Virus record (IMG/VR): IMGVR_UViG_2660238209_000003
Span: 1 to 15,763 of that record
Strand: one strand, 5' to 3'
DNA length: 15,763 bases
Source: a virus
Lineage: Duplodnaviria; Heunggongvirae; Uroviricota; Caudoviricetes
The first letter of the stretch is position 1; every line of letters starts with the position of its first letter. Below are positions 1 through 3,000 of this stretch, one piece after another. Made by a program: the position numbers.

Positions 1-3000
1 GCATCAATGGTCTTTACAAAGCGGAGGTAATACACCGTAAGAGCTGGAAAAACCGTGCAGAAGTGGAACTGGCCACACTCACGTGGGTGGACTGGTATAA
101 CAATCGACGATTGCTGGGAAGGCTGGGCCATACTCCTCCGGCAGAAGCAGAAAAAGCTTATTATGCTTCCATCGGAAACGATGATCTGGCAGCCTGAGTT
201 CACAGATAAAACACTCTCCAGGAAACCCGGGGCGGTTCAATCCGGCACCTGAGCACACCTTTTGACTGCGCATGTGTTGATCTGGTTAACGATGTTATGC
301 GTGTAGTCTCAGGGCAAAACATGTCTGCGATGGCCGGTGGAAGATTGCCGTCATTAATACGATGGCATTCGAAAGTCTTTTCCCTTCCGGAAAGAACCTC
401 GTTTTCCTGTCTCAGGGTGAAGTCTCCGACGCCAGAGCGGGTGGGCATTACAGTGCTGGCTGATGATGTTCCGGTGATTCACCTTGCTCCGGGAAGCCTT
501 TCGGGAAGCGTGGTGAGATTACCTGCTGCAACCGGGCAAAACTGGCAGGTACTGGTTTCCGGTTTTGGTCAGGTTGAACGTATCACACTCAGTACATCAA
601 TGTCGGAGCTACCGATATGACAAAAAAACCGTGGCGCGCAGGGAAGGATTTATCTGCGGTTGTGGAAAATATGGAGATTGGCACAGGGCAGCGTGGTGAC
701 GGACGTCACGCCTTTGTGACCCGTGAAGAACTGGTTGGTCTGAAGCTGGCTCGTCGTCGTGCTTCTGGTGGTGGCTCATACGCCCTGAATCCGGGGGTAG
801 AGATAGACAGTAGCCTGATGGTTGTGGATTTCCCCCCGAAGCCGCTGAATTTTAAAGCGACAGGTGGATTTGGCTCGGTTCTCCTTGAGTGGGATATGCC
901 CAATTATCGAGGTCATTCACTGACTGAAGTCTGGCGGGGTACGGAAGACGACCTTGCTGATGCCGTGCTGGTTGCCACCACACCGGGGCAGGTTTACGGC
1001 GATCCGGTTGACCCGGGATGGTCGGGATTTTACTGGATCAGGTTTGTGAATGCTGCTGGCGTTAAAGGACCGTGGCATGCTGTCGGTGGTGTTGCTGCAC
1101 AGACACAAATTTCTGTTCAGGCGCTGATTGACCAGATCAAGGAAGAAGCGGCGAATTCTCCTGTTGTGGAGGAGTTACGGCAGGAAATTAAGGATGCCGA
1201 AGGGCGGGCAGTACAGGAAGCTGGCGTGCAGACCACTGAGGTTGTGGGTAATCTCAGGGAGGAGACATTAAAAACGATTGGTGGCGTGGAAACCCGCATA
1301 ACCGATATGGACTCATCAACAAGTGAATCGCTAAATGAAGTTAATGAGCGAATCACTAAACTGGATGAAGGAGGCAGTAAAGCTTTCCTGTCCATGTGGT
1401 CAAAGAAAGCCGGAGCTGATGGGGTGACAGCCGGAATCGGCATTGTTGCCGGAAAAGACAGCAGCGGAGGTGCGGTAAGTCAGGTGGCAATATCCGCGTC
1501 GCAGTTGTTTGTCTTTGACCCGAACGATCCTGATAACACGGCCTATCCGTTTGCAGTTTCTGGCGGAAAAGTCGTGATTACTAAAGCGATGATTTCTGAC
1601 GCGGTGATTGAAACGCTTGTATCGCAGAAAATTGTCGCGGATGAAGTAAAGGCCGGGGTAAGTATCACCTCGCCGGTGATTCGCAGTGCTGTTATTCAGA
1701 ACGGGAACTTTCAGGTTGATTCTCAGGGTAATCTGAATATTGGTGGCCTTTTTAGTGTTACTTCTCAGGGGCAACTGACCATTCGTTACTCTAATCAGAA
1801 TGTGGGGCTGGTGATCCGCAATGATAAAATTGAAGTTTATGATGAAAACGGAAGACTGGCTGTACGAATCGGAAGATTGAGCTGAACGGGAGGCTGATAT
1901 TGGCTGCATTCGGTTTTTCAATTTATGACAAAAATAATGTTGATGTGACAGGCGTGCTTACCCCCATATTTTACCTGGACAGGTTTACGGCGGAGTCTGG
2001 ATCAAAAACGTATACGAATAAACCTGAAGGGAAAACATTGCAGGCAGTCTGTTCATTATTTCCGTGGAATAATGTGTTTGCGGACCGGAAAGTACCGAAG
2101 ATAACCATTAATGGCAATACGGTGACGTGGTCTAATCTTGAGCAGGGAATGGGGTCATATATTTATACATTCTGGGGGTGAGTTGTATGTATGGTTTAAG
2201 TATTACGAAACCAGATGGCAGTTTGTGGATCAGTCCGGGGTTTACACCTCAATGCCTGATCAATAAAGGCACCATACCGGCGACTGAAAAGGCTTTTTTT
2301 AAAACATCAATTCCATCTGATAAAAGTTGTTTTTTCTTTATCAGAACAGAGAAGAAGGCTGATGTCATGTACACGCATGAACAGATAGATGGATATCATG
2401 CCCTGAGGCTTCATGTAATTGTCAAGGGAACGAACCCTGGTGTTACGACGGTTTATGCTTTCGCTAATATGGTTACTCCACCTTCTGAGTATGGTATCGC
2501 CATGTATAACCCGGACGGTGAGATGATCTATCATGGCGAAATGATGCTGCTTGACGCGAAGTTAATACCTGTTGATATCAAATTTGAAAAGGACCTTGGA
2601 TATCCATGCGCAATCATGCCTGCACTGGTCGGGTATTATAACTGGAAAAGAACTCCTTATGACCGACCGATTTATACCACATCCACTGGCGCCACAGGAA
2701 ATAAAATATATTCCTGTGAGCATTATTCCGGTGGTGCAACATGGGATATTCGAAAGCCGTATATAGATAAGGTCCTGGTTATTAATACATCAGTATATGA
2801 TTAGTTGAAGCGAGTTTTTAATATTCATTTAAAATGTCTAAAAAGATGTATTATTAAAAAGTTTAGCGTGTTATCTGAATACAGGATATCTTAAATGAAG
2901 AGTATAGCAACACTGGTTGTGTGTGCAATCTCCGGGATTGCCTGTGTAAATTTATCTGCACATGCAGCAGAAGTAGAGCATACAATTTCTCTGGGGTATG

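Follow-up and report, generated by a model that had tools for sequence, protein, structure and literature searches.

A two-gene unit behind the tail needle gene of a 933W-type podovirus as a candidate receptor-recognition head

Here we analyze a stretch of DNA of 15,763 nucleotides (nt) from the IMG/VR virus record IMGVR_UViG_2660238209_000003 (positions 1 to 15,763; called the window below), and specifically two adjacent open reading frames on its + strand, ORF1 (1900–2181) and ORF2 (2187–2804), which follow the gene for the central tail needle. In the reading that we consider probable, if well short of certain, the two encoded proteins are the two halves of a small all-beta unit that serves as a detachable receptor-recognition head on the tip of the needle, with ORF2 as the putative receptor-binding subunit. 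Family membership, synteny, gene fusion, coupling to the needle gene and the absence of export signals are our own observations on the sequences; for the presence of the large protein in virions and for the receptor phenotypes we rely on published work.

Which virion protein allows the short-tailed Shiga toxin (Stx) phages to use BamA, an essential and conserved protein, has been a question since 2007, and the answer bears on how stx genes spread among enterobacteria. At present the pair is the leading candidate, already named as such by two groups: these are known, conserved Stx-phage genes that have been in the databases since 933W was sequenced, and the receptor-binding hypothesis was published in 2025–26. 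Four points are added here. Fused relatives and parallel divergence of the two genes point to one functional unit; alleles associated with FhuA, BtuB and BamA are united in a single family; the small subunit has 93 amino acids (aa) with a TTG start rather than 75 aa, which matters for its detection by proteomics; and published deletions in phage Sp5 conflict with a role as the sole receptor-binding protein (RBP), a conflict that should be resolved before the assignment can be adopted.

Gene models, family and predicted structure

By sequence comparison the window is the late region of a podovirus of the 933W/Sp5/Stx2-phage-86 type (Sepvirinae/Traversvirus) and not of a lambda-type siphovirus. 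From base 240 onward it matches Stx2-converting phage 86 and vB_EcoP_phi296/phi419 at 100% identity, whereas VT2-Sakai (Sp5), TL-2011c and many others are 90–94% identical to it, and at least 80% of its first 7.3 kb (as query) is covered by 186 phage records. An earlier note on this DNA, made from the sequence alone, had read the locus in a lambda frame, in which lom directly follows J. That frame has to be given up, and the 422-aa 'J-like' protein corresponds to the distal needle only.

ORF1 starts at a TTG at 1900, preceded at a distance of 5 nt by a Shine–Dalgarno sequence, GGGAGG, read from the sequence at 1889–1894 on the + strand. The start is supported by homologs with ATG starts, which align from residue 1–2, and by an identical TTG in the Sp5 ortholog. 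For ORF2 the mechanical choice of start, a GTG at 2178, gives a protein of 208 aa with a 4-nt overlap with ORF1. However, all ten of the aligned homologs begin at an MYG, MFG or MHG that matches the ATG at 2187, and we therefore take ORF2 to be 205 aa long (2187–2804) with no overlap. The earlier note had proposed two overlapping genes, one of 93 aa with a TTG start and one of about 206 aa; both exist on the + strand and the first was exact, but the second is shorter by this argument and the overlap disappears. It had also noticed several cysteines, which are indeed present, one in ORF1 and four in ORF2, with C48 and C141 invariant in an alignment of 11 sequences. In comparison with the Sp5 orthologs, the ratio of non-synonymous to synonymous substitution rates (dN/dS) amounts to 0.10 in ORF1 and 0.04 in ORF2: these are real genes under strong purifying selection.

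Profile comparisons place ORF1 and ORF2 in PHROG families 557 and 425, the family of T1 gp32 and gp31. ORF1 matches phrog_557 at E = 1e-32 (residues 3–93 on profile positions 2–92 of 100), and ORF2 matches phrog_425 at 6.3e-81 (residues 4–208 in the 208-aa numbering, on profile positions 3–224 of 224). T1 gp32 and gp31 hit the same two profiles at 1.9e-31 and 9.3e-68, and hhalign aligns ORF1 with gp32 at E = 4.9e-5 and ORF2 with gp31 at 1.5e-5. That no family was recognized at first holds for Pfam (none at E ≤ 0.1) and NCBIfam, but not for PHROGs. An exhaustive profile search over 1.84 billion cluster representatives returned only 113 clusters at 50% identity; none of these has an annotated member, and no distant family of enzymes or lectins came up. 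A sequence search for solved structures gave chance matches only for both proteins (E ≥ 0.34).

Neither protein has a signal peptide, a lipobox or a transmembrane segment. The N-termini (MAAFGFSIYD... in ORF1, MYGLSITKPD... in ORF2) carry no hydrophobic leader, and the maximal 19-residue Kyte–Doolittle means are 0.62 and 0.83, compared with 2.09 for the leader of the neighbouring Lom protein. The pipeline labels 'outer membrane protein' and 'membrane associated protein' attached to these families are thus unsupported by anything we can read in the sequences, and the signal peptide and lipobox cysteine typical of Cor/Llp lipoproteins are absent from both. Matusiak et al. reached the same no-membrane conclusion from the energetics of membrane insertion.

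The AlphaFold2 model of ORF2, built from 11 sequences, is all-beta, with a predicted local distance difference test score (pLDDT) of 75.7 and a predicted template-modelling score (pTM) of 0.72. Foldseek against BFVD finds 17 matches at E < 1e-3, all of them uncharacterized phage proteins and many similar in size; they confirm a phage-wide family and are uninformative on function. Two segments of the model, residues 1–23 and 95–120, have low confidence, and these hold the most conserved motifs of the protein, YGxSIxxPDGSxWxSP and YGIAMYNxxGEMIYHG. From the model we infer that such segments may become ordered only upon binding a partner.

The opening motif of ORF1, FGFSIYDKNN, resembles the ORF2 motifs, though this short common motif is visible by eye only and BLASTP finds no similarity between the two proteins. 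Written as [FY]-G-[FLI]-[SA]-[IM]-[YT]-x-x-[ND]-[NG], it occurs three times in the pair (ORF1 residues 4–13; ORF2 residues 2–11 and 102–111), and it recurs in T1 gp32/gp31. One may speculate that the three copies are turned towards the trimeric needle tip and form an adaptor between three-fold and single symmetry. A similar-looking motif occurs in DUF6453 proteins without detectable homology: the local resemblance (GPGINIFNSNNQCTF... against GYGIAMYN..GEMIYH...) prompted us to consider a common origin with that family, which was dropped at a profile–profile probability of 0.04%.

One unit, coupled to the needle gene

Some of the relatives found in the exhaustive search are 307–325 aa long, and in these the match to the ORF2 profile does not begin before residue ~100. 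In one of these fused proteins, P0082, residues 1–80 match phrog_557 (4e-8) and residues 99–307 match phrog_425 (4e-28), and hhalign of the ORF1 family against the N-terminal ~100 residues of the fused relatives gives a probability of 95.9% (E = 5.9e-9). AlphaFold2 models the fused form as one compact body, again all-beta (pLDDT 72.7, pTM 0.76). In one locus the fused gene and the stop codon of a 2872-aa J-like gene overlap, and next comes a gene for an S74 tail fibre. The two separate genes also diverge in parallel: small/large pairwise identities across seven phages are 60/60, 63/62, 49/47, 53/51 and 25/24%. Because of this Rosetta-stone fusion together with the parallel divergence, ORF1 and ORF2 most likely act as a 1:1 unit, as far as sequences can tell. 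The same pattern favours a heterodimer of the phi24B orthologs gp54 (large) and gp55 (small) over the suggestion of Matusiak et al., in which a homotrimer of the small protein would make up an alternative tip.

The needle gene (617–1885, + strand) encodes a fibre of 422 aa that resembles the C-terminus of gpJ and corresponds to 933W L0125, Sp5 ORF71 and phi24B gp56. It matches Pfam Phage_Tail_Tip (2.2e-10), phrog_496, tail fibre (3.6e-176), and phrog_31, central tail fibre J (2.2e-25). In phi24B, cryo-electron microscopy (cryo-EM) shows gp56 as a trimeric needle with a C-terminal beta-prism, and in Sp5 ORF71 is essential. Only 15 nt separate the stop of the needle gene from ORF1, and 5 nt the stop of ORF1 from ORF2. 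Between 1500 and 4200, the region scanned, 6 promoter-like sites were found against 5.3 expected, none of them positioned for the pair; there is no terminator from the needle gene to lom, and the first good one lies past lom at 3653–3671. The pair thus has neither promoter nor terminator of its own and, judged from this arrangement, is tightly coupled to the needle gene.

The same neighbourhood is found far outside the Stx phages. ORF2 homologs are detected by tblastn in 296 phage records, and the pair is conserved in about 280. Carriers other than Stx phages include the virulent T1-like Warwickvirus phages tunus, tonnikala and BASEL Bas04, the Nonagvirus phages JenP1 and JenP2, a lambda-like metagenomic phage (L003) and temperate Cyrano-type phages of ~108 kb. 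The pair adjoins the 3' end of a gpJ-like gene, with the small gene upstream of the large one, in the window, T1, tunus, Bas04, JenP1, L003 and L004. It is co-directional with that gene in the window, T1 and L005 (fused form) and convergent with it in Bas04, tunus, JenP1, L003 and L004. Directly before the pair, Bas04 and L003 have a gene for a Cor-family lipoprotein (phrog_1119, ~1e-7), and tunus has an 89-aa ORF. The convergent layout with Cor matches that of Rtp45–Rtp44 in phage RTP, and the pair occupies what has been described for small siphoviruses as the 'bona fide RBP locus downstream of gpJ'.

Several details of these alleles are worth recording on their own. The Nonagvirus allele of JenP1, JenP2 and BRET (L012, JenP1 4217–5115; also L004) is 60% identical to the Stx type, 44% to the BtuB type and 27% to the FhuA type; for phages of the JenP1 type, an essential receptor such as BamA would evade knockout screens. 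The Cyrano allele is 82% identical to that of JenP1 and 62% to that of the window, and is also carried by CMS-2020a and PhiR41_1. In Bas04 (FritzSarasin; L008) the small subunit is present as bas04_0024 (4720–4998; phrog_557 at 3.9e-20), though routine annotation missed it. A 2026 paper describes BtuB-using Tempevirinae phages, a group assumed to include Bas04, as being without an 'outer membrane protein' partner.

The pair is also linked to the needle through the end of the needle protein. J-like proteins that are accompanied by the pair end in I.V.D.NG.L.V.IGR(L/I): this holds for the window, Sakai, L003, L004, JenP1, Bas04 and T1, and approximately for L006, whereas the J protein of RTP, which carries a DUF6453 RBP, has a different end and lacks the motif. 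Apart from this stretch of ~15 residues, the C-terminal regions are only 22–27% identical. The idea that the pair tracks one particular J C-terminal domain variant, raised in the earlier note, is accordingly rejected as far as a whole domain is concerned and survives in the form of a common extreme C-terminal motif. Divergence between the allele of the window (tv86) and the Sakai/phi24B type is unevenly spread. Nucleotide identity is 73–86% in the needle gene, 86% in ORF1 and 84% in the first ~120 nt of ORF2, and 93–100% in the remainder of ORF2 and in lom. Together, the terminal motif and this block of divergence fit co-varying docking surfaces and a conserved receptor-facing part, with the needle as the proposed docking partner; a plain recombination breakpoint is a possible explanation of the block as well.

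The lower GC content of the pair, on which the earlier note had remarked, is real: 41.7% for 1900–2804 against 51.7% for the whole window. Among all windows of 905 bp this value ranks within the lowest 4.5%, with the minimum at 2001. The low-GC block is wider than the pair, however, extending from about 1500 to 3300 and including the 3' end of the needle gene (45.5%), ORF1 (42.2%), ORF2 (41.4%), the following intergenic region (23.3%) and lom (46.0%).

Receptors, deletions and competing explanations

Alleles of this one family are associated with different receptors, FhuA in T1, BtuB in Bas04 and BamA in the Stx phages. FhuA is needed by T1 and by the other phages with the T1-type allele, and the terminal receptor of Bas04 in the BASEL table is BtuB. 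(We dropped an assignment of this Warwickvirus allele to FhuA, inferred from the KanT1 paper, on the strength of that table.) Phage phi296, whose pair is identical to that of the window, plates on 54 of the 54 Keio outer-membrane-protein knockouts tested and is neutralized 100–1000-fold by purified BamA. According to a large receptor screen, the choice of receptor in T1-like phages is predicted by genes in this locus and by the GpJ tip. For phi24B, extra asymmetric density of the size of a gp54–gp55 heterodimer is seen at the needle tip, and gp54 is detected in the virion proteome; the authors proposed that BamA is bound by gp54, either alone or together with gp55. AlphaFold-multimer predictions by others address the contact between the pair and BamA. 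The T1 cryo-EM paper leaves the distal J tip unresolved and is hence uninformative on gp31/gp32.

The mechanism that we consider most likely would run as follows. The pair would be made late in infection, co-transcribed with the needle gene, and translation of ORF2 would follow that of ORF1 within 5 nt. A 1:1 heterodimer would then bind and cap the distal tip of the trimeric needle, where ORF2 would contact an outer-membrane protein and ORF1 would act as an adaptor or clamp. The likely target of the allele in the window is BamA, which is the least certain step, and on rough K-12 a Stx podovirus would keep another trigger of infection. Docking, the stoichiometry in the virion and the contact with BamA are the parts of this scheme that we infer. 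A broader version, which we put forward only tentatively, is that PHROG 557/425 is one widespread plug-in RBP family, split or fused, that docks on the C-terminal strand motif of gpJ in podoviruses and siphoviruses alike, with alleles targeting FhuA, BtuB and BamA. The pair in the window would then be a BamA adhesin that is dispensable on rough K-12 by virtue of redundant entry through lateral fibres or the bare needle.

A number of observations weigh against a receptor-recognition head. The strongest comes from Mondal et al., who deleted Sp5 ORF72 and ORF73, the orthologs of ORF1 and ORF2, singly, in-frame and marker-free, with primers that leave 3+3 codons. Only nine ORFs (60, 61, 62, 65, 67, 70, 71, 79 and 80) proved essential, failing to plate or lysogenize K-12, and only delta-ORF64 and delta-ORF76 were reduced; delta-ORF72 and delta-ORF73 still plate and lysogenize K-12. 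A sole essential RBP should be indispensable, and the Sp5 deletions exclude that role. Neither of the papers proposing a receptor-binding function cites this result. Moreover, the receptor correlations for PHROG 425 and 557 are genomic, and the complexes are AlphaFold models. In phi24B virions gp54 is of low abundance, and gp55, searched for as a 75-aa protein, was not detected. No solved structure resembles the ORF2 model or that of the fused form: Foldseek against the PDB gives nothing at E < 1e-3 for either, the best matches being the C-terminal domain of PCSK9 for ORF2 (E = 0.016, template-modelling score ~0.25) and one at E = 0.16 for the fused form. In Cyrano (~108 kb, temperate; L011 4717–5615) the pair does not adjoin tail genes, the sole such context that we have seen. 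Finally, the comparison of J C-terminal motifs includes just one negative control, RTP. Since Sp5 tolerates either single deletion, the pair in the Stx podoviruses probably has an auxiliary or redundant part in adsorption and is not the sole trigger; an adsorption module of this kind is compatible with the deletion data.

The same deletions bear on the idea that the pair serves the needle rather than recognizing the host, either as an assembly chaperone or as a tip cap that folds, trimerizes or stabilizes the beta-prism. Many tail-fibre chaperones are encoded directly behind the fibre gene, the pair diverges together with the needle gene, and its most conserved motifs lie in the low-confidence segments of the model, as for a protein folded by its partner. 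However, ORF71 is essential for Sp5 tails while both ORF72 and ORF73 can be deleted, which rules out an essential needle chaperone, since the pair is evidently unnecessary for a functional needle. Nor is a catalytic chaperone expected in virions, where gp54 is found, and a correlation between allele and receptor is not a chaperone trait. We regard a purely structural role as unlikely, so that of the two alternatives to horizontal acquisition named in the earlier note, a receptor-binding accessory or a chaperone for the divergent J C-terminus, the former is favoured and the latter contradicted by the Sp5 data.

Horizontal acquisition itself, in the form of a moron or lysogenic-conversion cassette of foreign DNA among the tail genes that serves the lysogen and has no role in the virion, was the explanation named first in the earlier note. 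The low GC, the position beside a true moron (lom), the dispensability of the pair for growth and lysogeny of Sp5, and the PHROG category of family 425, 'moron, auxiliary metabolic gene and host takeover', are all in its favour; the Cyrano-type pair is also found among accessory genes (TciA/TciB-like, DUF4942 and Ea22-like). Yet a moron would have its own promoter and terminator, and here there are only spacings of 15 and 5 nt. Of the composition and distribution expected of a moron (temperate carriers only, patchy occurrence, deviant GC), the deviant GC alone is found, and even this extends over the 3' end of the needle gene; the pair is conserved in roughly 280 records and occurs in strictly virulent phages of the T1-like, Warwickvirus and Nonagvirus groups (Drexlerviridae and Nonagvirus). 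Export signals are missing despite the membrane-protein annotation, fused forms overlap the stop codon of J, and gp54 is present in purified phi24B virions. This explanation now appears quite improbable.

The KanT1 paper offers, as a guess for T1-like phages, that the pair is an accessory of superinfection exclusion, acting in the infected cell with a lipoprotein of the Cor/Llp type to mask the receptor. Cor-family genes do adjoin the pair, sometimes co-oriented and overlapping (L003, Bas04, T1), and the literature association with FhuA use fits as well. However, proteins lacking a signal peptide, lipobox and transmembrane segment have no known route to the outer membrane or periplasm, and neither the window nor the Sakai (Sp5) prophage has a cor gene adjoining the pair, that of Stx2-86 being ~3 kb upstream in an O86-specific region. 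In the Rtp45/Rtp44 layout it is the larger protein that is the proven RBP, with Rtp45 as the exclusion protein, and gp54 is associated with the virion. Of the explanations considered here, exclusion seems to us the most improbable.

Neighbouring genes and known systems

The left end of the window (1–254) is the end of an insertion sequence of the IS3 family; over 3000 plasmid records contain IS3-family transposase ends that match it at 96–99% identity. The insertion cuts the gene for the tail nozzle (Sp5 ORF70, Stx2-86 gp25, phi24B gp57), so that just the last ~370 nt of that gene are retained beside the needle gene (255–620, + strand, by the match to Stx2-86); the match to Stx2 phage 86 starts within gp25, at record position 21623 of 20303–22003. 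In Sp5, ORF70 is needed for tail formation. Because this essential gene is interrupted by the IS3 element, the prophage that supplied the window is probably unable to build tails.

On the other side, ORF2 is followed by an AT-rich spacer (2805–2894; 23% GC by computation) with no above-chance promoter and no terminator, and then by lom (2895–3629, + strand), which encodes an Ail/Lom outer-membrane beta-barrel with a signal peptide (Pfam Ail_Lom, 2.5e-32). This gene is a true moron-type neighbour that lies outside the pair, and the terminator-like hairpin at 3653–3671 follows it. Within the next spacer (3630–4058), a 46-aa ORF at 3863–4003 (+ strand), MPQKTIIVSILCITILVIVWMIHNSHCEFRLNIMWSQFAAFLQCKQ, resembles a membrane toxin of the Hok/Gef type, and the region ~3694–4075 matches stretches of plasmid records labelled 'Hok/Gef family protein'; an Rfam scan of the window gave no matches, and no Sok-like RNA was found near this ORF at the gathering threshold. 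Further downstream, 5667–5918 encodes an 83-aa protein rich in glycine zippers with the C-terminal sequence GTGIGTGAAIGASVGGPVGAVAGAVIGGIAGSLF, labelled 'bacteriocin' in RefSeq. Proteomics of phi24B found 'a homolog of a bacteriocin' in virions, which the authors dismissed as a contaminant. Because its gene is sited inside the block of virion and ejection genes, the protein may be a genuine internal or membrane-active component of the virion. The remaining large gene (7225–15615) encodes 2796 aa and is the giant Sp5 ORF80/phi24B gp47, with a metallopeptidase-like motif of the HEWFH type; polyvalent-protein domains of the LPD5 type are annotated in related records. Sp5 ORF80 is essential for tail formation, and phi24B gp47 has been proposed as an ejection protein.

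Among known systems, the closest to the pair are its orthologs in other Stx phages: phi24B gp55/gp54 (YP_009168169.1/YP_009168170.1), 933W L0126/L0127 and Sp5 ORF72/ORF73. Identity is ~97.6% for ORF2 (96–98% across Stx records) and ~86–89% for ORF1, the gene order (needle, small ORF, large ORF, lom) is the same, and there is essentially no difference, the window carrying the tv86 allele. The one correction concerns gp55, annotated as 75 aa, for which the conserved TTG start gives 92–93 aa. Matusiak et al. have proposed that this Stx pair sits on the spike tip as an 'Ig-like small protein' together with a 'hand-like protein', the large 'hand-like' subunit being ORF2.

At greater distance, the Warwickvirus pair (bas04_0024/0023 of Bas04, tunus, tonnikala) resembles that of the window in its profile matches (phrog_557 at 3.9e-20, phrog_425 at 2.6e-49) and in size (92 + 204 aa), at 47–49% identity, but it is convergent with gpJ, has a Cor-family gene before it, and belongs to virulent phages with BtuB as receptor. 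T1 gp32/gp31, with homologs in N15 (gp22/gp23) and HK022, form part of the 'extended cor cassette' of FhuA-dependent siphoviruses. They share the PHROG families 557/425, the order after gpJ, the co-direction and the lack of export signals with the window, yet they are only ~24–25% identical, are longer (101 and 229 aa), have cor next to them on the opposite strand, and are associated with FhuA instead of BamA in a long-tailed siphovirus.

The RBPs of the Rtp44/Bas18 type (Pfam DUF6453, PF20051), accompanied by Rtp45, occupy the same slot directly downstream of gpJ, have the same total size as the pair (311 aa in Rtp44 as against 93 + 205) and, to judge by the predicted structures, are likewise all-beta, lectin-like sandwiches. 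Each is a separate RBP attached non-covalently to the tip of J, the arrangement proposed for the pair. Their role in binding LptD has been proven by cryo-EM. Rtp44 differs in being a single polypeptide and shows no detectable homology: the 0.04% given above is that of the fused family against DUF6453, and single-sequence hhalign against Rtp44 gives 1.1% for ORF1 and 0.2% for ORF2. Phage T5 offers a further parallel in pb5 (oad) and Llp, where a monomeric RBP sits non-covalently on the tip of a trimeric central fibre and is encoded beside a small exclusion lipoprotein, although the pb5 locus lies elsewhere in T5-like phages. The family of pb5 is unrelated; the protein is one much larger chain, and T5 cannot infect without it. 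In lambda, by contrast, gpJ itself includes the binding domain as a covalent, Ig-like part with three-fold symmetry, whereas the J-like needle of the window ends in a plain beta-prism, and it has been proposed that its binding function is outsourced to separate genes.

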